From assembly GCA_964482535.1 (NCBI GenBank), contig CAYZXU010000002.1, positions 1 to 60,458 of the forward strand: a stretch of DNA of 60,458 nucleotides, given 5' to 3'. The notes beneath the pieces are model-generated. The model saw nothing but the letters and a program-made list of their open reading frames with translations, did not search any database and was not told the DNA's origin. This document shows, piece after piece, positions 271 to 50,710 of this stretch. Source of the DNA: an uncultured Desulfobacteraceae bacterium. GTDB taxonomy: Bacteria > Desulfobacterota > Desulfobacteria > Desulfobacterales > BuS5. A program made the position numbers and the translations under genes. Position 1 is the first letter of the stretch. Each line of letters starts with the position of its first letter.

Positions 271-319
271 ATTTGGTCTTAACATGGGTCATGTTTTAAT
301 TGAAAGAAGGGGATTGCAT

Positions 320-598
320 ATGAAGTTAAGCGCATCGATAAAACCCATAAGTTATTTTAAATCTCATGCTGCGGAAATTATCAGACGCATCTCAGAAAAC
401 CAGGAGTCAATGATTATTACCCAAAGAGGAGAGGCAAAGGCTGTAATTCAGGATATTCACAAATACGAACAAACCCAGGAAAGTCTCGCAATGCTGAAAA
501 TTCTGGCACAAAGTCGGAAAAGTTTAAATAAAGGAGATGTCAAACTTGCAGCCGATGTTTTCAACGAGCTGAAAACAAAAGATGATTCTCCATCATGA
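320..598 (+). CDS. Phd/YefM-family type II antitoxin
   Basis: 92 aa from ATG 320, preceded by AAGGGG at 307-312 with a 7-nt spacer. MKLSASIKPISYFKSHAAEIIRRISENQESMIITQRGEAKAVIQDIHKYEQTQESLAMLKIL has the typical Phd/YefM N-terminal pattern. The stop TGA 596-598 overlaps ATG 595 of the downstream ParE-like ORF (ATGA coupling). The ORF-track start at 284 is probably too far upstream. Confidence 0.8.
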   Translation: MKLSASIKPISYFKSHAAEIIRRISENQESMIITQRGEAKAVIQDIHKYEQTQESLAMLKILAQSRKSLNKGDVKLAADVFNELKTKDDSPS

Positions 599-783
599 GT
601 TTTACTGTCCATATAATAGGAGATGCTGAGAAAGATTTATATGAAATCTATAATTATGTCAGAAAATCGGACTTTCCGCTCAATGCCCAAAAAATATTTT
701 CACGGCTGAAACAGGCATGCCTCAGTCTTGCGGATAATCCGGAACGAGGGCATATTCCACCAGAGCTTGAAAGAATAGCGGCA
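595..783 (+). pseudogene. ParE/RelE-family toxin, 3'-truncated remnant
   Basis: The first ~62 codons (MSFTVHIIGDAEKDLYEIYNYVRKSDFPLNAQKIFSRLKQACLSLADNPERGHIPPELERIA) look like the N-terminal two thirds of a ParE toxin. The expected continuation (G-I-x-E-Y-R ... P-Y-R-I-I-Y ... H-G-x-R) is missing. The rest of the 104-codon ORF (to 909) is simply the antisense of the convergent HTH gene. Confidence 0.6.
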
Positions 784-1058
784 AGTTTTTTGGCAGTAGC
801 CAGGCTGATAGTTCTATTGCCACGTTCCATGTTGGAAATGATCTGGCGGGGAACTTTGCCTATTTTTTCGCCAAGTTGGGCCTGGGTCAGGTTATGGTTT
901 TTCCGGTAAATCCGCATTGCGTCGCCTGGGCTGGTTTGTGCTTTGATTTTTTTATACCAGTCCGTTTCAGTGGCTTCGACGTATTCGTCGTCTCCTTCAT
1001 AAATTTTCAATTCACCGCCATACTCCTTTACAAAAAAAATGCGCTGATAAAAGATCAT
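654..1058 (-). CDS. XRE-family helix-turn-helix protein (antitoxin-like); native 3' end apparently lost
   Basis: Residues ~43-96 (PGDAMRIYRKNHNLTQAQLGEKIGKVPRQIISNMERGNRTISLATAKKLAAIL) form a classical Cro/C1-type HTH. Recognisable similarity stops near nt 771. The remaining 38 codons (to 654) read through the antisense of the parE remnant. Confidence 0.55.
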   Translation of the reverse strand: MIFYQRIFFVKEYGGELKIYEGDDEYVEATETDWYKKIKAQTSPGDAMRIYRKNHNLTQAQLGEKIGKVPRQIISNMERGNRTISLATAKKLAAILSSSGGICPRSGLSARLRHACFSRENIFWALSGKSDFLT

Positions 1059-1096
1059 GTTTAAATTTTAATATATTTTTCTTATTTATGATCAAT

Positions 1097-1840
1097 TTAT
1101 TTTTTTAAAAAGCGTACTTTACATTTCAAACCTGCAGAGAGTTTATATGAAGGATTGGAAAGTTTCAGCCGTACGCCGAAAGTTCCGCTTGCAGCATCTA
1201 CTATTTGGTCCACAATCACAGCTCTTACTTTATACACACCACCTACCGGTGATTCCGGGCGAACCTCCGCAAGCATATTTTTTTTTATTAAATTGATTAA
1301 TTCAACCGGAACATTCACTTCAACATACAGCGGATTTATTTCAGCAATAGTCATTATTGAATCATCACCAATATATTCTCCGGGGGAACCGGTGCGTTCC
1401 ACAACAATGCCGCTTATGGGACTTCTTATAGTACGCAGTGTAAGCCTTTCTAGTTCTTCCTGAAGCTGCAGTTCCATAATCTTCAATTCCGTTTCAAGCT
1501 CATCTTTATCATGAACCGATATTAGCTGTTTGTCATAAAGCTCTTTGTTTCGTTCAAGCTTTCTTTTGCCGAATTCAACACGTGCACCGGCAAGATTAAC
1601 CGCTGCAGTTTCAACACCTGATTTTAACCTTGCAAGCACCTGGCCTTTTCTTATTCTATCACCTCTTTCCACTGTAATTTCATCTAATATGCCGGGAACC
1701 TGACTGCTGACATTTACGACTTCGCTGGGTTCAATAATGCCGTCAATTTCCACAAATTCAGAATCTGCAAATGACACCAGAGCCGGGAGAAATAAAAATA
1801 AAATAAAATAGACTAAAATTTTCTTATACCGAACAATCAT
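1097..1840 (-). CDS. small membrane-fusion (HlyD/RND-adaptor family) periplasmic adaptor
   Basis: There is a signal-anchor (KKILVYFILFLFLPALVSFA). It is followed by a lipoyl-like motif (VSSQVPGILDEITVERGDRIRKGQVLARL), a short coiled-coil hairpin, SPISGIVVER, and a beta-barrel region. ATG 1840 has AGGAG (1848-1852) 7 nt upstream, and that SD overlaps the SecA-like TAG stop (1851-1853). ATG 1846 and the ORF-track start at 1885 are alternatives. Confidence 0.8.
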   Translation of the reverse strand: MIVRYKKILVYFILFLFLPALVSFADSEFVEIDGIIEPSEVVNVSSQVPGILDEITVERGDRIRKGQVLARLKSGVETAAVNLAGARVEFGKRKLERNKELYDKQLISVHDKDELETELKIMELQLQEELERLTLRTIRSPISGIVVERTGSPGEYIGDDSIMTIAEINPLYVEVNVPVELINLIKKNMLAEVRPESPVGGVYKVRAVIVDQIVDAASGTFGVRLKLSNPSYKLSAGLKCKVRFLKK

Positions 1841-1850
1841 TTTCATACTC

Positions 1851-3839
1851 CTATTCAGATCTACCGGAAAAAGACAGCATGTCACCGATTCTCTCCACCT
1901 GCTTAAATAAATGCTTTCTTATTTTTCCATGTTGTTTTTCAACCTTTTTTTGAGCATATATAATCGCAAATTTCCCGGCAAGTGTCCAGGCCGGAATCCT
2001 GAAACGCATCATTATAAGGGTGATAAAACTAAAAACCGAAAATTCCCTTTGAACCAGGTGATCCTCCATTGAGAGAAAAGGCTCAAAACTTCCGGGATCT
2101 CCCTGACGGGCGCAACGACCTTGAAGCTGCCTGTCAATACGGGCAGCATCATGTTTTTCTGTTAAAATTACGTGAAGACCCTTATTTTTTGCAACGCTTT
2201 TCTTTAGGATAATATCAGTTCCCCGGCCAGCCATGTTTGTGGCAATGGTAATACACCCGGGCTGCCCTGCTTCAGCAATAATATTTGCCTCTTCTTTATC
2301 CTGCCTTGCATTTAATACACGGTGTTTGATTCCTTCCCGGGCAAGAAGAAAACTGACACGCTCGGAAGCTGCAACGGAACGTGTTCCTGTTAGAACAGGT
2401 CTTCCATCGTTTTGCATTTGTTTAAGACGTTTTACTACAGCCTGCCACTTTAATTCTTCTGTTGGAAAAATTTTGTCACGATAACTGTCCCTGATCACAG
2501 GGCGGTTTGTGGGGATGCTGATAACCGGCAATTCATATACATGCCACAGCTCATTTTTAACCTCCATGGCTGTTCCAGTCATTCCAGACAGATTCAGATA
2601 CCGCCTGAAAAAACTCTGATAACTTATTTTGGATAGAGACTCCCGCTGTTTTGTCACTTCGCACCCTTCTTTTAATTCAATAAGCTGGTGCAGACCTTTT
2701 TCCCATGAACGGTCGGGCATTAATCTTCCTGTAAATTCATCAATAATATGAATTTTATTGTCCTGGATCAGGTAATGTTCATCCCTGTGGAAGAAATGCA
2801 AGGCTGTCAGGGCTTTTTGAATGATATCTTCTCTTCTTATGGTTCCGGTCCATAAATGCCCCAGGGCTTCGGTCTTTTCAATAATTAGAAGTTTTCCTTT
2901 TTTTGTAAGCTTAATCAGTTGCTGGGAACGATCAATGATATAGTCGGTTCCTTCAAGGATCTCACCGGCAATTGAAATAGCCTGTTCCATAAAAAGCTGC
3001 TCATCTTTTCCCCCTGATGTTCCTGAAATAATTAAAGGCGTTCTTGCTTCATCAATAAGAATACTGTCTGCCTCATCAACAATTGCAAAACAAAGACCTC
3101 TTTGAAGAAGACGACGGGATTTTGAGTTATTGCTGCAGATATTTTCAGCCTGCAAGTAAAGATGATGCCCTCTGTTTTCTAATGTTATCCTGTCCCTCAG
3201 ATAATCAAATACAACATCTTTATTGGTACAATAAGTAACATCACACTGATAAGCCTCTCTGCGTGCATCGGGCTCAAGTTCATGGGTAATGCAGCCGACT
3301 GTAAGGCCGAGAGCCCTGTAGACAGGCCCCATTGATTCGGCATCCCTTGCAGTAAGGTAATCGTTTATGCTGATAACATGAACAGGTATTCCGGCAAGTG
3401 CAGCGGTGCCTGCTGCAAGAGTTGCGGTAAGCGTTTTTCCTTCGCCGGTTGCCATTTCAGCTACCATTCCGTTCAAGAGAACCCATCCTCCAATAATCTG
3501 AACATTATAATGTTTCATATTGATTGTTCTGCCTGCGATTTCCCGGATTAAGGAAAAAGATTGTGCTGACAAATCTTCTTCAAATCCTTTTTTATGGAGT
3601 TCTAAACGCAGATCAGCAATCATGGTTTTCAACTGTTTGTCGGATTTTTTCATTAAACCGGATGAATATGCTTCCACAAGAGAAACAAAACGTTTGCGGT
3701 TTATGCCTCCGGAAGAAGAATAAACATAAAGTCCTTTTATTATTCCTGCAACCACATCAAAAGGACCTGATCGTTTACTTTTTTTTTCAGGACGAAAATT
3801 AACAGTGGCCGGAGGATATGAAGAGACAATGGTTTTCAT
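1851..3839 (-). CDS. SecA-family motor ATPase, C-terminally truncated paralogue (662 aa)
   Basis: Near-canonical SecA motor motifs are present: MATGEGKTL (GEGKT = 3432..3446), AIVDEADSILIDEARTPLIISG, HIIDEFTGRLMPDRSWEKGLHQLIELKEG, SYQSFFRRYLNLSGMTGTA, IPTNRP, ATNMAGRGTDI, RIDRQLQGRCARQGDPG and LSMEDHL. The protein ends 17 residues after AQKKVEKQHGKIRKHLF, which corresponds to the start of the SecA helical scaffold. The wing domain, two-helix finger and Zn-binding tail are therefore absent. Confidence 0.85.
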   Translation of the reverse strand: MKTIVSSYPPATVNFRPEKKSKRSGPFDVVAGIIKGLYVYSSSGGINRKRFVSLVEAYSSGLMKKSDKQLKTMIADLRLELHKKGFEEDLSAQSFSLIREIAGRTINMKHYNVQIIGGWVLLNGMVAEMATGEGKTLTATLAAGTAALAGIPVHVISINDYLTARDAESMGPVYRALGLTVGCITHELEPDARREAYQCDVTYCTNKDVVFDYLRDRITLENRGHHLYLQAENICSNNSKSRRLLQRGLCFAIVDEADSILIDEARTPLIISGTSGGKDEQLFMEQAISIAGEILEGTDYIIDRSQQLIKLTKKGKLLIIEKTEALGHLWTGTIRREDIIQKALTALHFFHRDEHYLIQDNKIHIIDEFTGRLMPDRSWEKGLHQLIELKEGCEVTKQRESLSKISYQSFFRRYLNLSGMTGTAMEVKNELWHVYELPVISIPTNRPVIRDSYRDKIFPTEELKWQAVVKRLKQMQNDGRPVLTGTRSVAASERVSFLLAREGIKHRVLNARQDKEEANIIAEAGQPGCITIATNMAGRGTDIILKKSVAKNKGLHVILTEKHDAARIDRQLQGRCARQGDPGSFEPFLSMEDHLVQREFSVFSFITLIMMRFRIPAWTLAGKFAIIYAQKKVEKQHGKIRKHLFKQVERIGDMLSFSGRSE

Positions 3840-3844
3840 AATAA

Positions 3845-5998
3845 TTAAATATTGAATTTATTAAGAAGCAGACGACGGAAATCCCGATACCACCGAAAAA
3901 CAAGGGGTTCCGGTTCGTGTTCAAAACGCACATACACCCTTTCGCCGACTCTGTTAACGAAAACACCTTCCAATTCTATTTCTATTTGAAATAATCTTTC
4001 AAATGCCTTTGGTTTATTATTTTGTCTTGGATCGAGAACAATATCGCCTCCGCCTTCTGAACTGAACGCCATGCTTGGCAGATCTTCAGAAGCTGCGGGC
4101 ACCACTCTTTTTATTGTTGATGGAATAATTTTTTTCATATTACCGGCGAGTCTTGATTCTACTTTTATAGAACTTTGAAACACCCTGTCCGCTTTGGTCT
4201 GGGATATGATAACAAGTGCGGTAGCATCATCCGAATCATTTATAACAAACCCTAATTGTTCGCCTCTTTGAATAAAACGTCCTGGGAGATCCTGAGAAGA
4301 CATGGGCAATAAAAATATTCCGTCTTTAGGACTGTAAATCGTCAATTCCCCGCTTCGTTCCATTGCCCTTTTTAATTCCGCATTTACCCTTTTTATTTCA
4401 TCATTTAAAATGTCCGCCTCAGTTCTGTTTTCTATCATGCTTTTCATATGCATCAACTTCAATTCTAAAAGTTTGGCCTTTAATTTTTTGACCCGGACAA
4501 CAAGTTCAAGATTTTCACAGATGATAAGGGGAGCGCCTGCTTTGACTTTTTCACCGGAAACGGCAGCAACCTCTTTAATAAACCCACTGGTTTTTATGTG
4601 GATTCTGGATTGTTCAGGCGGCCATAATACTCCCTGGGCATCAGTAATATAGCTCATGGGAACAATAATGAACAGGGGAGGAATCAAAAGACAAACAGTA
4701 AACAGGATTATTTTTAAAATGCGTTTTTGTTTTTTTTTAAAGCTGTAATTCATAATAAGATATTTGACACCCCTGAATGCCGGCATGACCAGCATGGTGA
4801 ATCCGCACCATAACGCAAGCAGGATCCCGATTAAAAAAAATTTGCCGGCAACCATTATGATGATTCTTATGGAGATAAAGATTCTGTATATGAATGCCGC
4901 AACACCGTATATCCCCATTAATAATGCTTCGCCTTTTGCGGTTGCCGGAGATTGAGCAGCTTTATCTTCAAGTAGATAGCGGCGTAAAAGATAACCGATA
5001 TACTGATTGCTGCGGGTTCCCATATTGGGGATTTCCAGATAATCCGAAAGAACATAATATGCATCAAACCGAAGAAGAGGATTCCCATTGAACAGCAGGG
5101 TGGAAATACTTGCTACAAGAATAATGTTATAAGTAATTGCGCGAATATTTCCAGGCTCAATATTTACCCATATTATTAAAGCAAGGGCTGCAATAAAAAG
5201 TTCGCATAAAATACCTGCTGCACCTACCAGCATGCGTTTTTTTTTGTCGGAAAATGCAATGGAAGCTGATGCATCCATATAGGGTATAGGCATAAAAACA
5301 AGCAGCATAATACCCATAACATGAACTTCACCACCCCATTTTTTTACGGCATAGGCATGGGCAAATTCATGAAAAAGTTTTAAAACAGGGTATACAAACC
5401 AGAGCAGCATTAAATTTTGTGCGCTTAAAGCCCTGTCAATGATATTCAAAGTAAGATCATTCCAGTGTACCATTAGAATTGATAGAGCATACAAAACAAT
5501 GGTCAACCAGATTATTGCCCCTGAAATACTGAAAACACTTTTCCCGATTAAGGCGGTTTTGTTTAAAAACCTGTCAGGATCAAAAATCGGCAACTGTATA
5601 CTTACCGGCGATTTCAGTATATTCATCATCCCTTTTCGTTTTTCCTGCTTAAAACGATAGTGAAGATTCGCAATATCGGAAGGCAGATCGGATTGTATGG
5701 CATCTACACTGTGAAGCTGGGAAAGCAGATTTATAACTTCGTCCTGGGTAGGCATATCGTCACCAAGATGTTCACATGCCTGTTCCCATATCCGGTTAAG
5801 AGTATTTTTGCCATCCATAAAACCGATGATATAATAGGCTTCCGGTGAAAAACGATGAAATTTTCCCGTGGAATTATCCTGAAGAATATACCAGTCTTCA
5901 TCGCGGTACGTGTGGCGATGAATTTTAACATGGCTGCGTAATATCGGTTTAATCGATTCAACACGGTACCATGACTGGCTGAAAAGCGTTTCGCTCAT
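3845..5998 (-). CDS. PqqD-like domain - M50/site-2-protease-like polytopic metalloprotease - HlyD fusion (717 aa)
   Basis: Residues ~15-100 show a PqqD/RRE-like pattern (KPILRSHVKIHRHTYRDEDWYILQDNSTGKFHRFSPEAYYIIGFMDGKNTLNRIWEQ...). Several hydrophobic TM segments follow. The HExxH motif is HEFAH at 5357..5371, within a hydrophobic stretch, and the second S2P motif is NGNPLLRFDAYY (aa 304-315). A last TM (ILFTVCLLIPPLFIIVPM) precedes a ~250-aa MFP-type region (VSGEKVKAGAPLIICENLEL ... KLKAKLLELKLMHMKS ... ELTIYSPKDGIFLLP). Confidence 0.8.
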   Translation of the reverse strand: MSETLFSQSWYRVESIKPILRSHVKIHRHTYRDEDWYILQDNSTGKFHRFSPEAYYIIGFMDGKNTLNRIWEQACEHLGDDMPTQDEVINLLSQLHSVDAIQSDLPSDIANLHYRFKQEKRKGMMNILKSPVSIQLPIFDPDRFLNKTALIGKSVFSISGAIIWLTIVLYALSILMVHWNDLTLNIIDRALSAQNLMLLWFVYPVLKLFHEFAHAYAVKKWGGEVHVMGIMLLVFMPIPYMDASASIAFSDKKKRMLVGAAGILCELFIAALALIIWVNIEPGNIRAITYNIILVASISTLLFNGNPLLRFDAYYVLSDYLEIPNMGTRSNQYIGYLLRRYLLEDKAAQSPATAKGEALLMGIYGVAAFIYRIFISIRIIIMVAGKFFLIGILLALWCGFTMLVMPAFRGVKYLIMNYSFKKKQKRILKIILFTVCLLIPPLFIIVPMSYITDAQGVLWPPEQSRIHIKTSGFIKEVAAVSGEKVKAGAPLIICENLELVVRVKKLKAKLLELKLMHMKSMIENRTEADILNDEIKRVNAELKRAMERSGELTIYSPKDGIFLLPMSSQDLPGRFIQRGEQLGFVINDSDDATALVIISQTKADRVFQSSIKVESRLAGNMKKIIPSTIKRVVPAASEDLPSMAFSSEGGGDIVLDPRQNNKPKAFERLFQIEIELEGVFVNRVGERVYVRFEHEPEPLVFRWYRDFRRLLLNKFNI

Positions 5999-6028
5999 TA
6001 TATTATTTTTTCCCCTTTGAGCGAGCCC

Positions 6029-7885
6029 TTATGGAAGCCATGACCATGTCCAAAGGATAAACCATTCTCTAAGATCTTTTGTCCAGATACCTATTAGTTT
6101 TCGCCTGTCCACATATATCTTGCCGACACCTTCCATGCCCGGTCTGAGCGGGGTGGAATCGGATTCGATTCGTGCCTCAACCCGGAAACTGTTTTGCCCT
6201 TCTTCTGCTATTGTTATGGGGGTAATTTTACTGACTTTAAAATTAAAATGTTTTTCAGGAAAAGAAAAAAGGAGAAGAGTTCCGGACTGGTTTTCCTTAA
6301 TATCGGAAATGCGTTTTTCATCAATTTTTAAAATAATTCTGTATGAATCAAGTGGCGCGATTTCAAAAAGCATCTCCCCTTGCTGCACAGGTCCGCCAAA
6401 CTTCTGGGAAAGATCTCCAGAAACAAGTATTCCCTTAAAAGGCGCTTTTATTAAAGTTCGTGCAAGCTGATTTTCGACAAGTTCAAGTTCTGCATCTGTC
6501 TGCTTAATACGAGCATTGATAATATTAACTTCAGCCCGATTATGATCGGCAAGAGCTTCCTGGTGTTTACTTTTTAATTGTGATTTTTCACTTAACAGGC
6601 TTATGCGTTCTAATCTCAGGTCCCTGTCATCAAGGACGCACAGCACTGTGTTTTTGTTTACAATATCCCCTGCGCGAAAGCTGGATTCTTCCACAAAACC
6701 GTTAAAGGGAGCAGCAACAATACGACGAATTTCTCCTTCAAGGACAGCATCGGCTGAAATTCTGTAATCTCCGTTTTTATAACCAAAAAAAACAATTAAA
6801 CATATAAGCATGGTAACAAAAATTTTTCTCCCGGGATATCCTGTCCCTGTCAAGCGGATGATCTGATTTTTTAATGATTCTTTTATTTTTAAAAAAAGGT
6901 GACGATCATTTTTTCGTTTATCTTCAAGGGCCGGACCTGCAAGAGAAATAACGCCGGTGCAAAATTCCAGATCAACTTCGGTAAATGGAAATTCATGAGG
7001 ACGTTCAAGTGTTAATGCTCCAAAATAGCAATCGTTTCCGAACAGGGGAATAGTTAAAATTGATCCTGAACCATGCCCTTTGGAAAGCAGGTCATGGTCA
7101 CGTATTATTATGGCGCTTTTCTCGTCCTGATAGTCGGGAAAAATAATTTCCCGGCGTTGAACAACAGCTTCATCCATTGCTTTTTCAATATCACGAATAA
7201 GATTCATTCGCTCGCCGAATTTGGAACTGTGGGACAGCGCCTGAATCCGCATTCTGTTTTTTTTTACAAACCCGATGCTTACCCTGTCACATTTCAGTTG
7301 CGTAGCAAGTTTTGTAACAAAAGCCATTGCAGATCCTTCAAACCTGTCTTCCGCAAAAGCTTCCGCAAGAAGTGTAACAGCAGATGTTAATCGACCAAGA
7401 GCCGCTTCTTCTTCCCTGGAACGTTCCCTGCGAAATAAAAGCTCCAGCCAGGAAATACCCCATTGAAGCTGTTCCATTGCATATTTTAATTCTTCTTCCG
7501 TTCTGGCGGATATTTCAACAGCCACAGAGCCGAAAAGTTCCAGGTCAACCAATACAGGATATCCAAGACCAAAATTAGAAGAGGAATCATTATCCAGCTC
7601 AATCAAAAGGCCGCAACGTTTTTCAAGCACTCTTTCCAATAAATCGGCAAGCTGTTTGGGATCACCTCCCTTTTCAGGCCATTTTGATACTGGTTCATAG
7701 GATTTTTTTGATTCCGGACTCCCAATAACCAGTACGCTGGAAACAATATTCGGGATCAGAAGAGACTGAAGAGCTAACCAGTTATGAAAATATTCATCCC
7801 TGTTTTGGGTTTTAGAAAATCTGCTCCATATTTCTGAAAAACCATCTTTCTTATTTTCTACACTGATTGCTGATTTTTGATCCAT
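6029..7885 (-). CDS. tandem GAF-like sensor - TM - HlyD/MFP fusion (619 aa)
   Basis: ATG 7885 has GGGG (7894-7897) 8 nt upstream; the ORF-track start at 7951 adds 22 weakly supported codons. The cytoplasmic half has two GAF-like halves; the second one (MAFVTKLATQLKCDRVSIGFVKK ... GSILTIPLFGNDCYFGALTLERPHEFPFTEVDLEF) is clear. One TM (IFVTMLICLIVFFGY) follows, then HlyD-type lipoyl, coiled-coil and barrel regions (APFNGFVEESSFRAGDIVNKNTVLCVLDD ... LIKAPFKGILVSGD). Confidence 0.75.
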   Translation of the reverse strand: MDQKSAISVENKKDGFSEIWSRFSKTQNRDEYFHNWLALQSLLIPNIVSSVLVIGSPESKKSYEPVSKWPEKGGDPKQLADLLERVLEKRCGLLIELDNDSSSNFGLGYPVLVDLELFGSVAVEISARTEEELKYAMEQLQWGISWLELLFRRERSREEEAALGRLTSAVTLLAEAFAEDRFEGSAMAFVTKLATQLKCDRVSIGFVKKNRMRIQALSHSSKFGERMNLIRDIEKAMDEAVVQRREIIFPDYQDEKSAIIIRDHDLLSKGHGSGSILTIPLFGNDCYFGALTLERPHEFPFTEVDLEFCTGVISLAGPALEDKRKNDRHLFLKIKESLKNQIIRLTGTGYPGRKIFVTMLICLIVFFGYKNGDYRISADAVLEGEIRRIVAAPFNGFVEESSFRAGDIVNKNTVLCVLDDRDLRLERISLLSEKSQLKSKHQEALADHNRAEVNIINARIKQTDAELELVENQLARTLIKAPFKGILVSGDLSQKFGGPVQQGEMLFEIAPLDSYRIILKIDEKRISDIKENQSGTLLLFSFPEKHFNFKVSKITPITIAEEGQNSFRVEARIESDSTPLRPGMEGVGKIYVDRRKLIGIWTKDLREWFILWTWSWLP

Positions 7886-8140
7886 AAAATATTCCCCAAA
7901 AAGTAATTTATACCTTTCCCTGCTAAGCCAGAAAAAAAACTTATCACACACGCTATGGGAATGTAAACCATATCGTTTGCTATGTAAATCAGCTATTTTG
8001 GAAAGCTATTGACACTTAGTTATTAAACGGTTTATTATATAAAGGTTATTTTTTTTCTGTCTTTCACTTCTTTTTTTTTATGATAAATTCAAAATTTTAA
8101 TAGATAATAATATATTTAGCAAAAAAGGAATTATTGCCTG
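7886..8140. promoter_or_regulatory. divergent control region between the GAF-HlyD operon and tolC/giant gene
   Basis: This is a 255-bp AT-rich non-coding gap between divergent starts at 7885 (-) and 8141 (+). GCTAT occurs four times (7952, 7979, 7992, 8005), the last three at 13-bp spacing. ATGTAAA occurs twice, 21 bp apart (7961, 7982). A TATAAA -10-like hexamer on the minus strand lies at 7907-7912. T8 and T9 tracts lie at 8049-8056 and 8071-8079. Confidence 0.5.
8009..8038 (+). promoter_or_regulatory. candidate sigma70-type promoter for tolC and the giant gene
   Basis: TTGACA (8009-8014), an 18-nt spacer, then TATTAT (8033-8038), about 100 nt upstream of ATG 8141. This is a pattern match only. 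Confidence 0.35.
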
Positions 8141-9526
8141 ATGAAGTCAAAAATTAAGCTTTTGCCATATGGAATGGTCTGGTTGACTAAACTATTATCA
8201 AGTAAAATATTTTTGTCTACTTTCGTTGTTTTAATTTTATTTTCAAGCCGGAGTTTATATGCAGAAGATTTAATGTTTTTTTATAATAGCGCCAGGGAAT
8301 TTGATGCTCAATTTTCAAAGGCAAAGTATGATAAGGCTGCCTCCCGTGAAATTATAAAACAGGCATATTCAAGACTTTTTCCCACATTAACCCTTAATGC
8401 CGAACATACTAATACAAAAGATGATATAAAAAGCAGTGACAATACTGTTTATGGTTCAGGGGTTGCCCATTATCCTTCCGACAGTTATACGCTTGCCCTT
8501 GTTCAGCCGATTTTCAATTTTTCATACATAATGGGTGTAATAAAAGCAAAGGAAGAAATCCGGCGTTCCGATGTTGAATATGTTAATGCCCGGCAGGAGA
8601 TAATCATCCGGGTTGCGGAAAATTATTTTAATACTTTGTCTGCAAAAGATAATTATGAATTTTATAAATCAGAACTTGCAGCAGTTGAACAGCATTATAA
8701 TCTTGCTAAGGTTCAACTGGATAATGGTCAGATACCTGTAACGGATATGCTGGATGCCAGGGCAAGATCGGCGACTGTTTTTGCAGATATGATAAAATCG
8801 GAAAATGAACTGGATGATGCCCGTGAGGCGCTTTATGTTGTAAGCGGGCAAAAGGATATTAAACTATCCGGCATACAAACCAATGCATCACTGGCTGCTC
8901 TTGAGCCGGCAGATTATGATTCATGGATGCAAATCGCTCTTGAAAAAAATCTGGAAATTATAATAGAAAAACATGAAGTTGAAATTGCAAAGCGCGAAAT
9001 TAAACGCTTAAAGGCAGATCATTTTCCGGTTTTAAATTTAGAGCTCAGGGATGAATGGAGCGATGTGGACGGTTCCCTTTTTGGCGGTGGCAGTGAAGTT
9101 GAAACACAAGAGATTGCTTTTCAATTGAGCTTTCCTATTTTTAAGGGCGGTTTTGTAAGTTCCCAGGTTCGGGAAGCATTACAACTGCATAAGGCTGCAA
9201 AAGAGGAACTGCGAAATAAAACACTGCTGGTTAAGAGAAAAACCCGCTCAACATATCTTGGTGTAAAAAGTGCGATTATCAGAGCAAATGCATATGAAAA
9301 ATCCGTTGAAGCACAGAAACTGACCCTTGAAGCAAAACAGCAAGGTTTTAAATCCGGTCTGTTTACCAGCCTTGATGTGCTGGACGCGGAAAGAGATCTA
9401 TATGAGGCGAAACGGGATTATACCAAGGCAAGGTATGATTATATTACCAATATCTTAAATCTTAAATTCAGTGTCGGTACATTGACGGAAGAAGATATTG
9501 CCAAGGTAAATACATGGCTGGATTAA
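8141..9526 (+). CDS. TolC-family outer-membrane channel protein
   Basis: 461 aa. A signal-peptide-like N-terminus ends ...SRSLYA/EDL. The protein has a two-fold internal repeat of long helical segments typical of the TolC/OEP family (ASREIIKQAYSRLFPTLTLNAEHT; RQEIIIRVAENYFNTLSAKDNYEF; ALEKNLEIIIEKHEVEIAKREIKRLKADHFPVLNLEL; LDVLDAERDLYEAKRDYTKARYDYITNILNLKFSVGTL). Confidence 0.85.
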   Translation: MKSKIKLLPYGMVWLTKLLSSKIFLSTFVVLILFSSRSLYAEDLMFFYNSAREFDAQFSKAKYDKAASREIIKQAYSRLFPTLTLNAEHTNTKDDIKSSDNTVYGSGVAHYPSDSYTLALVQPIFNFSYIMGVIKAKEEIRRSDVEYVNARQEIIIRVAENYFNTLSAKDNYEFYKSELAAVEQHYNLAKVQLDNGQIPVTDMLDARARSATVFADMIKSENELDDAREALYVVSGQKDIKLSGIQTNASLAALEPADYDSWMQIALEKNLEIIIEKHEVEIAKREIKRLKADHFPVLNLELRDEWSDVDGSLFGGGSEVETQEIAFQLSFPIFKGGFVSSQVREALQLHKAAKEELRNKTLLVKRKTRSTYLGVKSAIIRANAYEKSVEAQKLTLEAKQQGFKSGLFTSLDVLDAERDLYEAKRDYTKARYDYITNILNLKFSVGTLTEEDIAKVNTWLD

Positions 9527-9546
9527 ACTTGATTTAGTTTGGATAA

Positions 9547-12500
9547 ATGTTTCTCAGGGGGAAACTTGTGTTTTACAAATTAAAAAAAATTGCGAAAAAA
9601 AGAAAAGAGAGCCGCAGGAACAAGCCCAGGGATTTTCAAACAAAAAGGCGCAGGATAAGATTTGAAGCCTTGGAAGACAGAATTCTTCTGTCGGCAGATA
9701 TTCCTATTATAGCCTATGACCTTGCATCTGATACAGCCTTGCCTGCTTTTGCAGAACAGGAACAATTGTTTCATGAAGAAACTCCTGCCCCGCAAATTCA
9801 ATTTGAACCTGAATCCATGGCAGATCAGATTGAAAACATTGGTAAAGAAGAGAATGTTCAACCGGATTATCAGGATAATATTAATGAAGATTATCTTGAG
9901 GATCAGTTTCAAATATCATCAGCCACCCAGGCAACTGTTAATTTTTATCCGGAAAACCCGGAAGAACAGGTTGAAAAAATCAATGAAGTTGAGAATGCCG
10001 AACCCCTGAAGGCAGATCTGCAGTTCGTTGATAATATCTATCCGAAGTACACAGAGGAAGGAATACTTGCATCTGAAATCATAGCCCGCCATCAAGTTCG
10101 TGAGATAATAATTGTTGATTCATCCGTTCCTGATTACCATGGCCTGGTTAAAGAGATAACTGCCGTTGACAGCGAAAGCGACCATACAGATGCAGGTAAT
10201 GATAACACATCCCCCGACATTTTTTCTTCTATCACGTCTTCTATTCAGGAGCATGAAACATTACAAACCGGAGAACCTATCCACAGCAGTTCGGAAAAAA
10301 CAGAGATAAGCCCTGAACGCGGCATATTTGTTCTTGATTCCGGACGTGATGGATTTGAGCAGATAACTGAAATATTAAAAAAATATAAAGACGTTGGCGC
10401 TGTTCATATAATATCCCATGGATCAGCAGGATTAATACGTCTTGGCTCAGGTAAGATTGATAAAGAAGATCTGGAACAAAACAGAGCCATAATTAAAGAC
10501 TGGGGCAAGGCTTTGACCCCTGACGGAGATATCCTTGTTTATGGATGCAGCGTGGCTCAGGGGAAAACCGGTATCGAATTTGTTGAAAGCCTGGGCAATT
10601 TAACAGGCGCTGATGTCGCTGCATCTGATGATGCTACGGGAAGTTCTGACCGTGAGGGCGACTGGATGCTGGAGTACAGCACCGGTATTATTGAAAGTAA
10701 GCCTCTTTTTGGGAGTACACCGGACTATAGCTATTTGCTGGAAGATATTATTGGAACGGATGATAACGATACTTTATCTGGCAATAGTGAACAGGATGAT
10801 ACGCTGACCGGCGGCGCCGGGGATGACACCTACGTATTTCAGGACAATTGGGGAGACGATACTGTTGTTGAGAATATTGATGAGGGAGTGGACATTCTTG
10901 ATTTTTCTAATATAATAACGGATCTCACCTTCACCCTGCATGACGATGGAACCGTTTCTGTAACAGACGGCACCAATATTATCAACAACGCTGCCGGTAT
11001 AGAAAAATTGGTTGGCGGCAGCGGCCATGACACCCTCGTGGGTCCTGATGGGGGAGCTATCTGGAATCTGACAGGGGACAACACGGGAATTGTCAATGGT
11101 TTCATATTCAGCGGCATTGAGGACTTGAAGGGTTCTGCCACCGGACAGGACACTTTTATAGTCGAAAATAAGGCCAAATGGTTAGGGATTATCGACGGCG
11201 GTGGTGGAACGGATATACTCGATTTAACACCTGTTGCCGATAATTTGATTTTTACGATTCAAGACAGTGGAATCGTTTCTGTCAACACTGCCCCGGATAC
11301 CTGGTCTTCTCTCGGCATTATCCCTGAAGATGTTCTTTCACTCCTGAGTGACGGTCTGGAAATAGATAGTGTCAAGAATGTCGCCAAACTGGTCGGAGGA
11401 AGCGCAGACAATACTTTTGCCTTCGAGGACAATGCCTCCTTCGCGGGAACCGTCGACGGTAGTACGGGTATTACAAACACTCTGGACTACTCGGCTTTTA
11501 CCGATGATGTCAATGTGAATTTTGCAAACAGTACTGCCACGGCAACACTCGGGATCAATAATATGAACCGGGTCGTGGGTGAAAAAGACAAGCTGACTGT
11601 CACCTGCACCGATGCAGGAGAAGAGACCATATCTTTTTCTAACGACAAAGGTGTGATAGCGAGTGCTTTAAGCTGGGTCGGGCTGGATAATATCGAAGGT
11701 ACGCCCGGCAACGATGTGCTTACAGGTAATGACGGTTTCAACATTATTGTCGGAAAGTCAGGAGATGATCTCCTGATGGGCGAAGGCGGCCCTGACACGT
11801 ATAAGTTCGCTGATGGCTGGGGTGCCGATACTATCATGGATAGCGGTGGAATTGATATTCTGGATTTCACCATGTGTACGGCGGATCTAACGTTTACCAT
11901 ACACAATGACGGCACGGTCAGCGTAACTGACGGCACCAATAAAGTATTTGCCACTGATGACATTGAAGTGTTTATCGACGGTCTGGGCAACGACAAATTC
12001 GTTTTTGAAGACGGCGCGACCTTTGACGGAATAATCGGAAAACCCAACTGGCTGCAGAAGCTGCTTGGTACCAGTTTGATAGATTATGGATCCAATACTA
12101 TGGATCTGTCTGCATACACAACACCGGTTTACGTAGATCTGGGCATGAAAATTCCATATCTGGAACAGATCCTCTTTCAGCATGCATGGCAAACCGATGC
12201 CGGTGATCCAATAGTTAATACTTTTCATAACATATCCAATGTCATAGGCGGTTCTGCGGGCGATTTTATCTGGGGCAGTTCTGAAGCCAATATTTTAAAG
12301 GGAGGCGCCGGTGATGATGTGATTTTCGGCCGGGGCGGCGCTGATACGTTTTATGGCGGTACAGGTAACGATACCTTGTATGGCGGAATGGGCATGGATG
12401 ACCTGATGACTGTTATCGGTCTGCTTAAAGACCCTGCTGCCATAGCGGATCAATTCCTTGCTTCAGCCCCGGAACTTTTAATGTACATTGCTGACGGGGG

Positions 12501-15500
12501 CACAATCCAGAGTTACATCATGAACCTCATTGCCGGTGATGAGAATGTTGTATCTTACGCTGATGCAACATCTGCCGTAACCGTAGACCTGGGTCTGACT
12601 CTGGATCCGGATGACCTGGCAGGCTTTTTGCCTTATAGTACCGGTGGTGCAGGTAATGATACAATTATTGATATCCACAACGTTACAGGATCCCAATATG
12701 ATGATATCCTGAAGGGTAATTTGTTTGATAATACCATTAAGGGCGGCGTGGGTGACGATGAAATTTACGGCGGCCTGGGATCGGATACCATCATCGGCGG
12801 AAAGGGTGACGATACACTGGACGGCGGTGATTTGGGTGACGACATCAATCCGCTGGGCGACAGGGATATAGCTTCATACATTGACGCGGGAGCCGGAGTT
12901 ATGGTTGACCTGGGTATCAATGGGGTCCAGGACACCAGACGATGGGAGATCTTGCCCCACGTCAATGATGCGGTCGGCGGTCTGGTTGAGGGGCGGGATT
13001 ATGAAGTTGTATATGTAACAGATGACACGTTCAGTCTTAAGAGCCGGAGTGGTGGTGATATTGATATCACGCTCTCTCCACCAGGCGGTACCCATAGCTT
13101 TGATAAGGATGGAGTAATAAAATCCTTTACCCCTTCTGATGACCTGATGGACTATGATGGCAATATTTTTACCATCAACGGACATGGATTCAGTAACGGT
13201 GACATAGTTACATATGCTGCAGGCGGTGAAAAAATCTATACCAGCACAGGGATGGGTCACGACACCCTGATCAACATGGAGGGCGTCACCGGTTCCAATT
13301 ATGACGACGTCCTGATCGGTACTGATGGGTATAACATCATTAAAGGCGGCGCTGGAAATGACTTTCTGGTCAGTGGAAAAGGGTATGATATTGTTAGCGG
13401 TGGAGTGGGCATAGATACGATTTCCTATGAAGACGCTGATGCTATGGTATTTGTTAACCTTTGGGACCCACTACCGCAGATTACCGGGGGCTCGGATGTT
13501 GATACCCTGAAAGATATCGAAAACGTCATCGGGTCGGATTATGACGATATCCTCATCGGCAGCTTCGGGAACAACCTTCTTGAGGGTGGATTCGGTGATG
13601 ACATACTGTCAGGAACTATGGGAGCAGATATTTACAAGTTCCGGGACGGCTGGGGAGACGATACGGTTATAGACGACATCGAGAGCTTGATAGACTATAT
13701 CGATGGAAACGTGGATGCCGCAGATTATATCCAGAACGGGCTTGCCATAGCCAGTGAATGGCTGTCCAATGCTGTAGACACTGTTGATGTCCTGGAAATC
13801 CTGAATGATGCCGAAGAAAAGTCAGCCGAACATATTCCCGACACCCTGGATTTCACACAAACAACCGCTGACCTTTCGGTCAATATCCGTGGTTTTGGCG
13901 ATGTGCATGTGGGATACGGCGCAAACCAGACAAATGATATTTCCGAGATGGAAGTGATTTTGACCGGCGGCGGCAGTGATACATTCATCTTTGGAGTTAA
14001 TCCTCTCACAGGCGATCCGGAATCCTTTAACGGTAAAATCGATGGCGGAAGTGTGAATTACGCCAAATATCCGGATGCTCTTCCTGATGTGAACACTCTT
14101 GATTATTCAGCCAATGCCAAATCCGTTGTTGTGGATCTTGAAGCCCCGGAAGACGGATCACCGGGAGAAGCTCAGGGAACAAAAGGTGTTTATAACATAC
14201 ACAATGTTATCGGCGGTGACGGTGATGATACTTTGAAGGGATCTGCAGGAAATAATCTGCTGCTTGGCGGAAAAGGCAATGACCTGATCGAAGGCAGCGG
14301 CGGTGACGATGTCCTTGAAGGCGGTGCAGGAAACGACACTCTGATCGGTGGTGAAGGCTTCGATATGGTCTCCTATGTGACCTATGATAATAGCGTTGAT
14401 GACACGGGGATCTCCATTGATCTGGGCCTGGTAGACGGGGAGCAGGATACTGTTGGGGCTGGATTAGATATTTTAAAGAGTATCGAGGGTGCGGTCGGAT
14501 CGAAGCATGATGACACTCTCACTGGAGATGATCAGGACAATATGCTGATCGGCGGCAAGGGTGCTGATACCATTTACGGCATGGCCGGTAACGATTTGAT
14601 CTCCGGTGATGCGGACAACGATACCCTGTTCGGCGGTGCCGGTGACGATACCATCGAGGGCGGTGCCGGTGATGATTTCATGAACGCCGGTGCCGGTAAC
14701 GACACGGCATCCTACATTTATCCGGGAACGGCGGTGGATGTTGATCTGGCTATAACTGCCCTGCAGGATACCGGCGGCGCGGGAGAGGACACCCTTCGCA
14801 GCTTTGAGAATCTTATCGGTTCCAAAGGTGACGATACGCTCCGGGGCAATGATGAGGATAATGTTCTGACCGGCGGCGCCGGCGGCGACACCATTTACGG
14901 CAGGGACGGTAACGATCTTATCGTCGGTGAAGCGGGCGATGACATTCTCTACGGTGGTCTTGGGGATGATATCCTCAGCGGCGGCCAGGGGGATGATATT
15001 ATCGACGGGTATATCCAGGGCGGGGATCCGGCCGACGACCATGACATTGATACCGTTTCCTATGCGGAAGCGGCAAGCGGTGTGGTCATCAACCTGAACA
15101 TATCGGGACAAGCCCAGGACACCGAGGCTCTGGGCATAGACACCCTGCAGAATGTGGAAGGGGTCATGGGGTCCGATTATGATGATATCCTCACCGGCAA
15201 TGCCAGGGACAATATTCTTCTGGGACAGTCAGGTGATGATATTATCGAGGGTGGCCAGGGTGATGATATTATGTTCGGAGGCGAAGGTTTTGATTTTGTT
15301 TCCTATTCACTGTCCGACACGCCCGTATTTGTTGACCTGAGCATTACCTGGGAGCAGGAAACAGGAGACTCCACCGGCTGGGATGAGATTGCCGGCATCG
15401 AAGGTCTTATCGGATCGGACTATAATGATGTACTGACCGGCAATGAAGAGAAAAATGTCCTCATGGGAGGGCTGGGCGAAGACGAACTGGACGGCGGTGC

Positions 15501-18500
15501 GGGTGCGGACACGGCCTCTTACGAGAATGCCCTTGCACAGGTGACCGCAGATTTGAGTGGGTTGACGGCAAACACCGGTGAAGCCTGGGGCGATATTTTC
15601 TTTGGCATCGAAAACCTTATCGGCTCGAATTTCGACGATATACTCATTGGGGACTCGAAAGACAATATTATATCTGGCGGCATTGGGGCGGATATCCTGA
15701 TGGGCGGCGCCGGTGTGGATATTCTCAGGGGTGAGGAAGGCGACGATGCCCTCTACGGCGAGGACGGAGACGACATCCTCGTGGGCGGAGCAGGAGCGGA
15801 CAGTTATGACGGCGGCGGCGGTGATAATACCGCCTCCTACAGGAACGCGGCGGATGACAATGTGGGTGAAGACACCACCGGCATTACCGTGGATATGAAC
15901 AACTACAACCTGAACACCGGTGAAGCCTTTGGCGACACATTTGCCAATATCCAAAATATCGAAGGTTCCGGCGGAGACGACATCCTCATTGCAGATAATA
16001 CAGGTGTCAAACTCTTCGGTCTCGCAGGAGACGATAAACTCACCGGCGGGACGGGCAATGACGAACTTACCGGGGGTACAGGGGACGATACCCTTCAGGG
16101 GGGCGTCGGCGATGACTTGCTTCAGGGCGGAGACGGGGCGGATGCGCTGTTTGGATACATGCAGGATGGAAATGTTGACGATGATACCGGCACGGATACC
16201 GCCACCTACGCAGGCGCGGGATCCGGCGTAACCGTTGATTTGAGTAAGAAGACCGGTTCGGATGATGTTGCCGAAGGGGACACGCTGGAAGGGATAGAGA
16301 ACCTTATCGGTTCAGATTATGACGATGAACTGACCGGTGACGATAAAGACAACCGGCTCCAAGGCGGTATCGGAAACGATATCCTGACAGGCAAAGAGGG
16401 CGATGATATCCTGGATGGCGGCGACGGCGGCGATTTTGCCTCATTCGCGAACTCGTTGCGGGGTGTGACCATAGACCTTGCGCTCACGACCCCTCAGGCC
16501 AATGGTGAAGAGGGAAGCGATACTCTCATTAGTATAGAGAACCTTGTGGGTTCCACACGCAATGACACTCTTATTGGAAACGATAATGACAATATTCTTG
16601 TAGGCGGTGAGGGTGAAGATACACTAAAAGGTCTTGCCGGTGATGATATCCTTTTGGGCGAAGAAGATTCTGATTATTTGGAGGGTGGTGAAGGTGATGA
16701 CATTCTGGACGGCGGGGACTGGGGTGACATCCTTATGGGAGGAGAAGGCATTGACACCGCAACCTATGCGGATGCCCAAAACGGTGTTACCGTAAACCTG
16801 CTTACCGGTATAGGCGGTGGGGACGAGGCCGATGGTGATACGCTTACGGGTATTGAAAACCTGGTCGGCTCTAAATTCGACGACACGCTCATCGGAGATA
16901 CGCTCGGCAATATCCTCAATGGCGGCTCAGGGGACGATACCATTGACGGTGGGGCAGGGGACGACTTCCTTGAAGGCGGTGAAGGGGATGACACCATCAC
17001 GGGCGGAGATCACGGCACAGAAGGCGATACTGTTTCTTACCAGGGCGATACGGCGGCGGTCAATGTGGAACTGGGCGGCGTCGCCCTTGATGGCTCCGGC
17101 GGTACAGATAGCCTGGAAGGTATTGAAAATATCTATGGTTCAGTCCACGATGATACCCTCGTAGGCGATGCGGACAACAATATTCTCTGGGGGAACGAAG
17201 GCTCCGACAATCTGGACGGCAGTGAAGGGGACGACGTACTGTATGGCGGATTCGGCGATGACACGCTGACCGGCGGAGAAGGCGGAGACACATTCATGTT
17301 TGAGGACAGTTGGGGCGTGGATACTGTGTCCGAAATTGATGACGCTTCAATAAATACCCTTGATTTTTCCCTTGCCATTGCTGACCTGACAGTAATCGTT
17401 CATGCGGATGGAACAGTATCAGCCTATGATAGTGTTAGCAAACTGGAAAATGTATCTCATATATCAAGAATAATCGGTGGACAGGGTAATGACCATTTCT
17501 TCATTGAGCAAAATTCAACCAACCTCCCGTTTCTCGATGGCGGCCCGGACGGGTCTGACACGTTGGATTACTCTGATTATACGACAGATCTGAATATTGA
17601 CCTTTTAAATATCAGCATCAATCCCACCGGAACATCCGGGGTCTTAAACATTGAGAATATTATCGGAGGATCAGGTGACGATACCCTGACAGCAGGCGAT
17701 AGCGATAGCATTCTCAATGGCGGCCTGGGAGATGATCATCTTATCGGAGGGGCAGGCAGCGACATGCTGCTCGGTGGTGAGGGCACGGATATCCTGGAAG
17801 GCGGAGCAGGTGATGACACCCTCGACGGCGGCAAAGAAGGCGACCAACTCTACGGGTATTTCAGTACTTCACTTCCCGGTGATGATACCGGATCGGATAC
17901 CGCCTCCTACTATACCTATCAGATGGACGAGGACTGGAATGGTCTTACGGTTGATCTCACAAATCCGGATGAGTCCACTAAAGATGCCCTGGGTGATACA
18001 TTCTCGGGCATAGAGAATATTACCGGATCAATGGGTGCGGATATCCTGGTTGGTAATGCCGAAACCAATATCCTTGCCGGAATGGACGGCAACGATACCC
18101 TCATCGGTATGGGCGGTGACGATGTGATGGATGGCGGCATCGGCTGGGATATGGTTTCCTATGAGGATTATGTTAATGCAACTGGTGGCGTCGATGTCGA
18201 TTTGAGACGTACCAATGGTTCTGATGCTGTTGTTACCGGAGCTTCCGGAATTATCAGCAGGGATTCACTTGTCAGTGTTGAAGATGTAACTGGTACCCAT
18301 TATGACGATATAATCACAGGTGATTTGTTTAGCAACATTCTCATGGGTGGTGACGGGAATGATATCATCAGGGGCATGAGCGGTAATGATACCATTTATG
18401 GCGGTGATGGCGATGATACGATCTATGGCGGCGAAGATTCCGACACCCTGATTGGCGGAGCAGGAGCCGATGATCTTTATGGATATATCGAAGGAGGTGA

Positions 18501-50700: not shown

Positions 50701-50710
50701 GGGTTTTATC

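Follow-up and report, generated by a model that had tools for sequence, protein, structure and literature searches.

A 60,458-nucleotide stretch of DNA (hereafter the window; contig CAYZXU010000002.1 of assembly GCA_964482535.1) from an uncultured Desulfobacteraceae bacterium encodes a 662-residue SecA paralogue, termed here the short SecA, which retains the SecA motor and lacks the wing domain and the two-helix finger. Its sequence and genomic neighborhood suggest that the short SecA is probably the cytoplasmic ATPase of a trans-envelope exporter for giant proteins, resembling a type I secretion system without the ATP-binding cassette (ABC) transporter. A dedicated export route for giant surface proteins is probable because a conserved operon encoding the short SecA, three HlyD-type adaptors and TolC lies beside the gene for a 13,571-residue protein (Table 1).

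A preliminary description of this DNA had noted the conservation of the SecA ATPase motifs, with GEGKT at 3432..3446, and a stop at residue 662, 17 residues past ...IRKHLF; direct reading of the sequence bears out both points. It had also anticipated the domain matches obtained in the Pfam profile scan, where SecA_DEAD covers residues 49–432 (E = 2.5e-100) and SecA_PP_bind residues 284–388 (2.8e-24, profile positions 6–110 of 110), and SecA_SW gives no match; P-loop_SecA is matched at 4.4e-54. Comparison with PDB sequences using phmmer aligns residues 24–601 of Bacillus subtilis SecA with residues 50–646 of the short SecA (2.8e-131, 39–40% identity), leaving 16 residues of the short SecA beyond the end of the alignment. 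The PPXD had been thought to be shortened; however, the insert between ISG and YLIQ comprises 83 residues in the short SecA and 81 in B. subtilis SecA, and nearly the whole Pfam profile is covered. Similarly, the protein had been taken to stop at the start of the helical scaffold, but an AlphaFold2 (AF2) model built from an alignment of 48 family members (mean predicted local distance difference test score [pLDDT] 83.5, predicted TM-score [pTM] 0.81) retains the long scaffold helix as a 34-residue terminal helix (618–651), followed by a disordered tail. The short SecA is thus composed of NBD1, a full PPXD, NBD2 and the long scaffold helix. Of the C-terminal third said to be missing, the wing domain, IRA1 with its two-helix finger and the C-terminal linker are indeed absent, whereas the long scaffold helix is present.

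Foldseek searches with the AF2 model returned strong matches to SecA structures only. The top fits were to the substrate-engaged SecA of SecA-SecY complexes (6itc and 5eul; TMq 0.80, root-mean-square deviation 3.1 Å) and span ~610 columns, the target proteins being ~765 residues long; 5k9t (in Foldseek) and 4uaq (in both phmmer against the PDB and Foldseek) were also among the structural matches. The canonical SecA N-terminus is replaced in the short SecA, where alignment to solved SecA structures begins only at residue 50. Both ends of the protein carry motifs of their own (Table 1), of which the tail motif LSFSG is a candidate docking peptide. The short SecA misses the NCBIfam cut-offs for canonical SecA (611.1 bits versus 814 for NF009538, 602 versus 800 for TIGR00963) as well as those for SecA2 (TIGR03714, 474 versus 930; TIGR04221, 456.7 versus 725; TIGR04397, 541.4 versus 1085; NF012136, 393.7 versus 1100 bits).

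The short form is a conserved state. A protein search with the short SecA identified 119 further clusters at 52–60% identity and one at 94%, with a length of 658–686 residues in most of the 120 matches listed. The ATPase motifs are invariant across 115 short SecAs, and Walker A is invariant also in the 48-member alignment. In ~70 full-length orthologues the consensus ending is R+xLL+xD....LSFSGRxE, the stop falls within 0–6 residues of the same position, and the tail, in the form L(S/A)F(S/T)G..E, closes the protein. The preliminary description held that the missing part of SecA is not merely frameshifted, and this is the case, because a HlyD-type adaptor gene starts only 10 nt downstream (gene start 1840). 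Nor was a separate open reading frame (ORF) for the SecA C-terminal domains found, which agrees with the preliminary description: Pfam names all but two of the non-module window ORFs of at least 80 residues, the exceptions being a 232-residue ORF (50624..51322), which has no Pfam or PDB match, and a 104-residue ORF (595..909), which was left out of the scan. A truncated or decaying gene copy, or a functionless product of misassembly or frameshift, might be suspected of a protein that is shorter than every housekeeping SecA and falls under all NCBIfam SecA cut-offs. The more than 100 clusters of ~660 residues at 52–60% identity, the stop position and tail motif shared by ~70 species, the invariant catalytic motifs, and the intact adaptor gene that takes up the whole of the downstream sequence all speak against decay; we reject the pseudogene explanation on the conservation of length and terminus, which effectively refute it.

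Indirect evidence points to a secondary rather than a housekeeping role for the short SecA, because a canonical-type secA is found near the module in one locus, the module is carried on plasmids, and the clade has been defined as a secondary SecA (Kamneva et al., 2015). The canonical-type gene, truncated at the locus boundary, is separated by ~6 kb from the upstream module in a metagenome-assembled genome (MAG) of Desulfobacteraceae (locus L007, 20460..22136, plus strand); its product matches Escherichia coli SecA from residue 1, with 527 bits over 559 visible residues. In six cultured Alphaproteobacteria the module is located on secondary replicons, and the plasmid-encoded short SecAs share the same operon and 44–49% identity with the window protein. 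Examples are pMSC49a of Methylosinus sp. C49, which has all seven genes including TolC (giant protein of 8,847 residues), and plasmids of Mesorhizobium ciceri R30 (10,518 residues), Pseudosulfitobacter DSM 107133 (12,918 residues), Pontibrevibacter nitratireducens (10,603 residues) and Alisedimentitalea scapharcae (8,148 residues). The M50-HlyD family, encoded next to the short SecA, occurs in Desulfobacterota, Alpha- and Gammaproteobacteria, Nitrospirota and Acidobacteriota, and according to the literature also in Planctomycetes, Verrucomicrobia and Chlorobi.

Scanning one genome per GTDB species with the M50-HlyD alignment revealed 516 genomes with a relative, a lower bound given that two peptide patterns were used. 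We fetched 80 loci from species-level genomes and analyzed them by six-frame ORF calling and blastp. The gene order is near-invariant: a large ORF, DUF3467, GAF-HlyD, M50-HlyD, short SecA and small HlyD. The short SecA directly follows M50-HlyD in 69 of 74 informative loci and is somewhere downstream in 73; GAF-HlyD is upstream of M50-HlyD in 62/64 loci, the small HlyD is downstream of SecA in 63/67, and DUF3467 lies between the giant gene and GAF-HlyD in 56/61. Sampling from the SecA side gave M50-HlyD directly upstream and the small HlyD downstream in 7/7 loci each. These counts uphold the conserved synteny of the short SecA with M50-HlyD and GAF-HlyD on which the preliminary description had depended. 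Where the flank reaches 9 kb or more (38 loci), 29 loci have a same-strand upstream ORF of at least 1,500 residues. When 83 loci were scanned for the ABC signature together with Walker A, 81 had no gene of the HlyB type within 10 kb.

Several loci depart from the common arrangement in other respects. In Desulfoluna limicola (AP024488.1, L001) a group II intron reverse transcriptase gene (12819..14096) lies between short secA and the small HlyD gene. On the Pseudosulfitobacter plasmid NZ_CP085155.1 (L092) a SapC-family gene (18968..19789) is located between M50-HlyD and short SecA, which hints that SapC is an occasional component of the system; SapC also flanks the exported giant proteins of Chlorobium chlorochromatii. 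In several genomes the RefSeq label of the short SecA is either "prepilin peptidase" or "DEAD/DEAH box helicase" (L088, 20028..21944; L092, 19782..21806; L090, 19890..21851); these labels are mis-annotations, and keyword searches would miss the family because of them.

Within the window, GAF-HlyD, M50-HlyD, short SecA and the small HlyD follow one another on the minus strand, separated by 30, 5 and 10 nt (Table 1). The small HlyD matches HlyD_D23, HlyD_3 and Biotin_lipoyl_2 in Pfam and exceeds the NCBIfam RND_mfp cut-off (123 bits versus 94.9). In GAF-HlyD, a GAF sensor domain on the cytoplasmic side precedes the HlyD domain, which is periplasmic. The TolC gene, which is divergent from the adaptor/SecA operon, is separated by 20 nt from the giant gene. 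The three HlyD-domain proteins and TolC are components of type I secretion; no HlyB-type ABC transporter is encoded in the window. Promoter-like hexamers are found in the divergent intergenic region at 8009–8038 (plus strand) and 8063–8034 (minus strand); the promoter and terminator scan of 900..9700 as a whole was not above shuffled expectation. No Rfam or tRNA matches were found in the window.

Table 1. Positions in the window of the short SecA module, the giant protein gene and motifs within their products
Feature	Position	Strand	Basis
Small HlyD-type periplasmic adaptor, 247 aa as called, N-terminal membrane anchor	1097..1840	-	Pfam, NCBIfam
Short SecA paralogue, 662 aa	1851..3839	-	ORF, Pfam, PDB alignment, AF2 model
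Short SecA C-terminal tail motif LSFSG, residues 654-658	1866..1880	-	Family-specific; four residues ahead of stop
Short SecA Walker A GEGKT, residues 132-136	3432..3446	-	Direct sequence reading
Short SecA N-terminal motif YPPA....RPE, residues 8-18	3786..3818	-	Conservation across 115 short SecAs
M50-HlyD: PqqD-like, M50-type HExxH membrane domain and HlyD fusion, 717 aa	3845..5998	-	Pfam, NCBIfam, transmembrane scan
M50-HlyD HEFAH (HExxH zinc site of M50 domain), residues 210-214	5357..5371	-	Conservation
M50-HlyD PqqD/RRE-like domain, cytoplasmic N-terminus, residues 37-99	5702..5890	-	PF05402
GAF-HlyD adaptor, 618 aa as called	6029..7885	-	Pfam GAF 3e-09, HlyD_3 1.6e-17
Divergent intergenic region between adaptor/SecA and TolC/giant operons	7886..8140	.	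Gene coordinates
TolC-family outer-membrane channel	8141..9526	+	Pfam OEP 1.9e-62; type_I_sec_TolC 294 bits, cut-off 225
Giant acidic protein, 13,571 aa, LEPR-XLL, DUF4347 and RTX	9547..50262	+	ORF, profile matches
Giant protein LEPR-XLL leader IRFEALEDRILLSADIPI, residues 38-55	9658..9711	+	NCBIfam NF012209 27.1 bits, cut-off 17
Giant protein C-terminal module ...AAAGYLGW...(~25 aa)...RRFMYW...	50080..50259	+	Alignment of cargo C-termini
DUF3467 protein, 112 aa	50362..50700	+	Pfam DUF3467 9.8e-22; 99 nt past giant gene

The gene preceding short secA encodes a polytopic membrane protein with ~6 predicted transmembrane segments ahead of its periplasmic HlyD part; its Pfam matches to Peptidase_M50 and HlyD_D23 are weak, and it has no match among PDB sequences. 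The N-terminal domain resembles PqqD and the recognition elements (RREs) of ribosomally synthesized and post-translationally modified peptide (RiPP) systems: PF05402 was detected in 32 of 37 M50-HlyD orthologues, whose N-terminal 140 residues were scanned (best E 3.4e-07; window copy 0.0017), and orthologues are named "PqqD family protein" or "PqqD family peptide modification chaperone" by PGAP. A second M50 motif, NGNPLLRFD, is found at residues 304–312. The two His and the Glu of HExxH and NGNPLL(R/K)FD are conserved in the three proteins aligned; the Methylosinus M50-HlyD carries HEIGH and NGNPLLRFD. The nearest curated NCBIfam families are the RiPP leader proteases daptide_HExxH (9e-40) and YydH/LiaK (8e-07), both under cut-off. 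The family is large, with 4,047 representatives (50% identity, E ≤ 1e-30), and uniform in length, 142 of the top 150 having 699–739 residues.

The giant LEPR-XLL/DUF4347/RTX protein is the presumed cargo of the module. The stretch ahead of the leader IRFEALEDRILLSADIPI is basic, with 19 Lys/Arg among the first 60 residues, and the leader core LEDRILLSAD has no uninterrupted hydrophobic core. DUF4347 (1.4e-46) follows the leader and is itself followed by RTX repeats, with 31 RTX stretches within the first 5,000 residues and 66 of 70 GGxGxD motifs in residues 422–3,500. The protein contains 1,942 Asp/Glu versus 687 Lys/Arg and 8 Cys, and no hydrophobic segments were flagged in it beyond Gly/Ala/Val-rich repeat stretches. 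The LEPR-XLL leader is present on all six cargos with a visible N-terminus, as read from the sequence in four (the window, L043 from Geopsychrobacteraceae, Methylosinus and Mesorhizobium) and from the PGAP product name in two (Pseudosulfitobacter and Pontibrevibacter). Among 120 N-terminal DUF4347 fragments in public data, 60 carry it too. At the opposite end, 36 cargo C-termini share (V/I)AGLxGW...RRFxRW. Cargos called in chromosomal or metagenomic contexts have 9,009, 17,800 and 6,926 residues; a search with the N-terminal 400 residues of the cargo returned only fragments of at most 688 residues, and the full-length figures derive from gene calls and plasmid annotation.

Other properties of the giant gene and its relatives are recorded here as side observations. 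Many DUF4347 proteins (P0291, P0296, P0326 and others), one from Pseudomonas aeruginosa among them, carry the variant motif (A/S)LEPRxxFDGA in place of LEPRxLLSAD, which may define a second leader class. The giant gene (window 10000..48000) has 46–55% G+C versus 35–41% in the flanking genes, probably reflecting its Gly/Ala/Asp-rich repeats. Near-identical internal repeats several hundred residues long are also present, e.g. at residues ~7,700–9,700.

The DUF3467 protein was considered as a possible SecB-like chaperone, a role that found no support. Its AF2 model (34 sequences) is of low confidence (pLDDT 55.6) and shows a strand-strand-strand-helix pattern; no PDB match was obtained by Foldseek at E ≤ 0.001 or by phmmer, and hhalign comparison with an E. 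coli SecB sequence entered by hand gave a probability of 0.3%. DUF3467-containing proteins of 357–701 residues are also encoded near the module, in L002 (14826..16892, minus strand), L008, L017, L028, L033, L034, L041, L051, L058 and L076. The one in L002 adjoins a radical SAM gene, and in loci without an adjacent giant ORF the longer DUF3467 proteins are accompanied by three or four extra mid-sized genes.

We infer every functional step of an export model from what was observed: the domain content, the conserved length and termini, the synteny, the linkage to the cargo, the leader motif, the conservation of PqqD and HExxH, and the absence of nearby ABC genes. The three HlyD-type adaptors (GAF-HlyD, PqqD-M50-HlyD and the small HlyD) would bridge the inner membrane to the neighboring TolC, with the polytopic M50 domain as a putative inner-membrane component. 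The short SecA, through its DEAD motor, PPXD clamp and scaffold helix, would supply the pushing force; it would dock on these partners and not on SecY, probably through its N-terminal YPPA..RPE and C-terminal LSFSG motifs. The basic N-terminal LEPR-XLL leader of the cargo may be bound by the PqqD-like domain of M50-HlyD and possibly cleaved at the HExxH site. The cargo would then be threaded N-terminus first, and its N-proximal RTX repeats would fold with Ca2+ outside the cell and prevent back-sliding. The GAF domain may gate export, and DUF3467 may be a cargo accessory. We propose more tentatively that the module may constitute a distinct and widespread Gram-negative secretion class, in which a wing-less SecA replaces the ABC ATPase, cargos of 7,000–18,000 residues leave N-terminus first, LEPR-XLL is read by a PqqD/RRE domain, and M50 perhaps removes the leader.

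Several points weigh against this export model. M50-family proteins are proteases and are not known as protein-conducting channels, and N68, a truncated E. coli SecA of comparable length, is reportedly unable to translocate proteins. Nine of the 38 loci with sufficient flank have no ORF of 1,500 residues or more within 10 kb; in several of these nine the large ORFs are fragmented or more distant, and extra genes are present. One locus (L008, MAG JAFDIS010000046.1, 7585..10583) has the module without SecA, the small HlyD coming straight after M50-HlyD; SecA may have been deleted there, or the locus may represent a naturally SecA-less variant. The conserved C-terminal motif of the cargo could be a classical type I signal, implying C-terminus-first export by an ABC exporter encoded elsewhere. 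Finally, the SecA, M50 and HlyD genes of Methylobacterium extorquens AM1 are barely expressed in exponential growth (Kamneva et al., 2015).

The possible type I signal at the cargo C-terminus would fit a different role for the short SecA, that of a cytoplasmic unfoldase, holdase or gatekeeper which keeps the nascent giant chain unfolded or presents the leader to the PqqD-M50 protease, the drive for export coming from elsewhere, e.g. a distant ABC exporter, the proton-motive force or Ca2+-dependent folding outside the cell. The PPXD clamp binds polypeptide, as this role would need, and a SecA without IRA1 is expected to have an unregulated ATPase, as in E. coli N68. The role nevertheless seems improbable: an ABC exporter is missing from the 10 kb around the module in nearly all loci scanned, the family-wide invariance of the ATPase motifs points to a demanding, energy-using function, and DUF3467, a separate small protein, is already a candidate chaperone. 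Alternatively, the short SecA might use SecYEG as SecA2 does, the adaptors and TolC serving only the outer-membrane step and M50-HlyD acting as a leader peptidase. We consider this two-step route unlikely. The two-helix finger that inserts into SecY is absent with IRA1, as is the lipid-binding canonical N-terminus; the leader LEDRILLSAD lacks the uninterrupted hydrophobic stretch; and every NCBIfam SecA2 model is far under cut-off. Furthermore, the strict linkage of the short SecA in operons with a polytopic membrane protein is suggestive of a membrane partner dedicated to it. In favor of the two-step route are the canonical motor, clamp and scaffold helix, an AF2 model closest to SecA from SecA-SecY complexes, the basic N-terminal leader of the cargo, and the report that giant proteins of Chlorochromatium wait in the periplasm before export (2026 preprint).

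We also considered whether the module matures and exports a small leader-containing peptide in the manner of RiPP systems, the giant gene being merely a frequent neighbor. The combination of a PqqD/RRE domain with an HExxH intramembrane protease recalls the daptide and YydH/LiaK proteases, to which the M50-HlyD matches remain under cut-off, and a radical SAM gene is found near the module in L002. However, the module contains no conserved gene for a small precursor, and in most loci of Desulfobacterota, Gamma- and Alphaproteobacteria the giant gene and DUF3467 stand next to the module in the same orientation. The conserved leader, moreover, is on the giant proteins themselves; the idea is very hard to sustain on this evidence.

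The short SecA shares NBD1, the PPXD, NBD2, the long scaffold helix and all motor motifs with the housekeeping SecA of the SecYEG pathway, from which it differs in the loss of the wing domain, IRA1 with the two-helix finger, and the C-terminal linker and zinc finger, in its N-terminus, and in being encoded not alone but with adaptors and TolC. Like SecA2 of Gram-positive bacteria and mycobacteria, it would be a second paralogue for a few special substrates, and mycobacterial SecA2 is also without the wing domain; the structural match 4uaq is presumably a mycobacterial SecA2. In contrast to the short SecA, whose host is Gram-negative and whose context is HlyD/TolC, SecA2 keeps the two-helix finger and works with SecY or SecY2, and no SecY2 or Asp genes were found among the window neighbors of the short SecA. 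The other match, 5k9t, is E. coli SecA-N68, an engineered C-terminal truncation with nearly the same domain content (motor and PPXD). N68 is a laboratory fragment with a deregulated ATPase and is reportedly unable to translocate proteins, whereas the short SecA belongs to a family that is natural and conserved and has terminal motifs and partners of its own.

With type I secretion (HlyB-HlyD-TolC, LapA/LapBCE, MpIBP) the module shares HlyD adaptors, TolC and a giant, acidic, Cys-poor RTX cargo. It has, however, no ABC transporter, three different adaptors instead of one, and a SecA-like ATPase; unlike type I substrates, the cargo has a leader conserved at its N-terminus and RTX repeats toward that same end, the mirror image of the usual C-proximal position. 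A leader-binding or leader-cleaving module is likewise fused to export machinery in peptidase-containing ABC transporters (PCATs) and in RiPP systems that combine an RRE with M50 (daptide, YydH/LiaK). This is an analogy only. All of those family models score under cut-off, the putative substrate here is no peptide but exceeds 10,000 residues, and the protease is fused to an HlyD adaptor and paired with SecA, not with an ABC domain.

The module itself has been described computationally as a combination of GAF-HlyD, Peptidase_M50-HlyD, SecA_DEAD without the wing/scaffold domain, HlyD/Biotin_lipoyl and sometimes OEP/TolC, with SecA_DEAD hypothesized to stand in for the ABC ATPase and M50 as a possible membrane component (Kamneva et al., 2015). 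The loss of the wing-scaffold domain and the presence of GAF-HlyD, M50-HlyD and HlyD/Biotin_lipoyl in one operon are all found in the window genes, and META1p2402-2399 of M. extorquens has the same gene order (Kamneva et al., 2015). The suggestion of the preliminary description that the short SecA is a motor for a membrane partner other than SecY is supported by the synteny and is a rediscovery of this published hypothesis. The window differs in the divergent TolC-giant-DUF3467 arrangement, and the cargo, giant genes, DUF3467, LEPR-XLL leader and PqqD domain go unmentioned in that study; as far as could be checked, the connection to the cargo is new, as are the leader, the PqqD domain and DUF3467. 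No paper linking LEPR-XLL giants to the module was found in a search that lay outside the subscription literature and curators' notes, and for later work on the module it returned, besides Kamneva et al. (2015), two papers on related themes without a SecA-cargo link. A full-text search designed to catch works citing Kamneva et al. (2015) yielded West-Roberts et al. (2023) and a 2017 study on microbial co-occurrence. Wing-less and scaffold-less SecA_DEAD and PPXD modules have been reported in giant proteins of Omnitrophota, with a proposed role in their export (West-Roberts et al., 2023, preprint). Those SecA domains are located inside the giant polypeptide beside transmembrane segments, and the loci are near type II secretion genes, in contrast to the separate 662-residue SecA and HlyD/TolC operon of the window. 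The giant proteins Cag_663 and Cag_665 of C. chlorochromatii, flanked by SapC and TolC, are exported and are said to lack known signals, and the same study lists a recently acquired secA without tying it to the giants (2026 preprint).

The remaining window genes lie on either side of the secretion genes. On the left, a Phd/YefM antitoxin gene (284..598, plus strand) overlaps the 104-residue ORF (595..909, plus strand), which could be the toxin of the pair, and an HTH_3 regulator gene is opposite (654..1058, minus strand). BrnT-toxin and DUF6932 genes come next in the source contig; a toxin-antitoxin cluster flanks the secretion operon. On the right, a XerC/D-type tyrosine recombinase gene (51362..52273, plus strand) follows the 232-residue ORF behind the giant/DUF3467 pair, and this region may be the edge of a mobile island. 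Beyond it are a PfaD-like enoyl reductase gene (NMO and FabD helical insert; 52356..54005, plus strand) of a polyunsaturated fatty acid/polyketide synthase cluster and a gene for a KS-AT-ACP-KR megasynthase of >2,143 residues (54029..60457, plus strand), which fills the apparently gene-free 54–60 kb and runs off the window end.

If the export model is correct, a SecA-type motor would drive protein export across two membranes without SecY and without an ABC transporter, along a route dedicated to some of the largest bacterial proteins. This would reveal how a SecA motor is made to work with another membrane partner, and would assign roles to the orphan LEPR-XLL leader, DUF3467 and the PqqD-M50-HlyD fusion. 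The presence of the module in culturable strains, which besides the plasmid hosts include Desulfoluna limicola ASN36, Marinobacterium rhizophilum DSM 18822 and M. extorquens AM1, and on plasmids makes the proposal directly testable. The more tentative reading of the module as a distinct secretion class would also account for the exit of giant proteins without known signals, such as the symbiosis proteins of Chlorochromatium.

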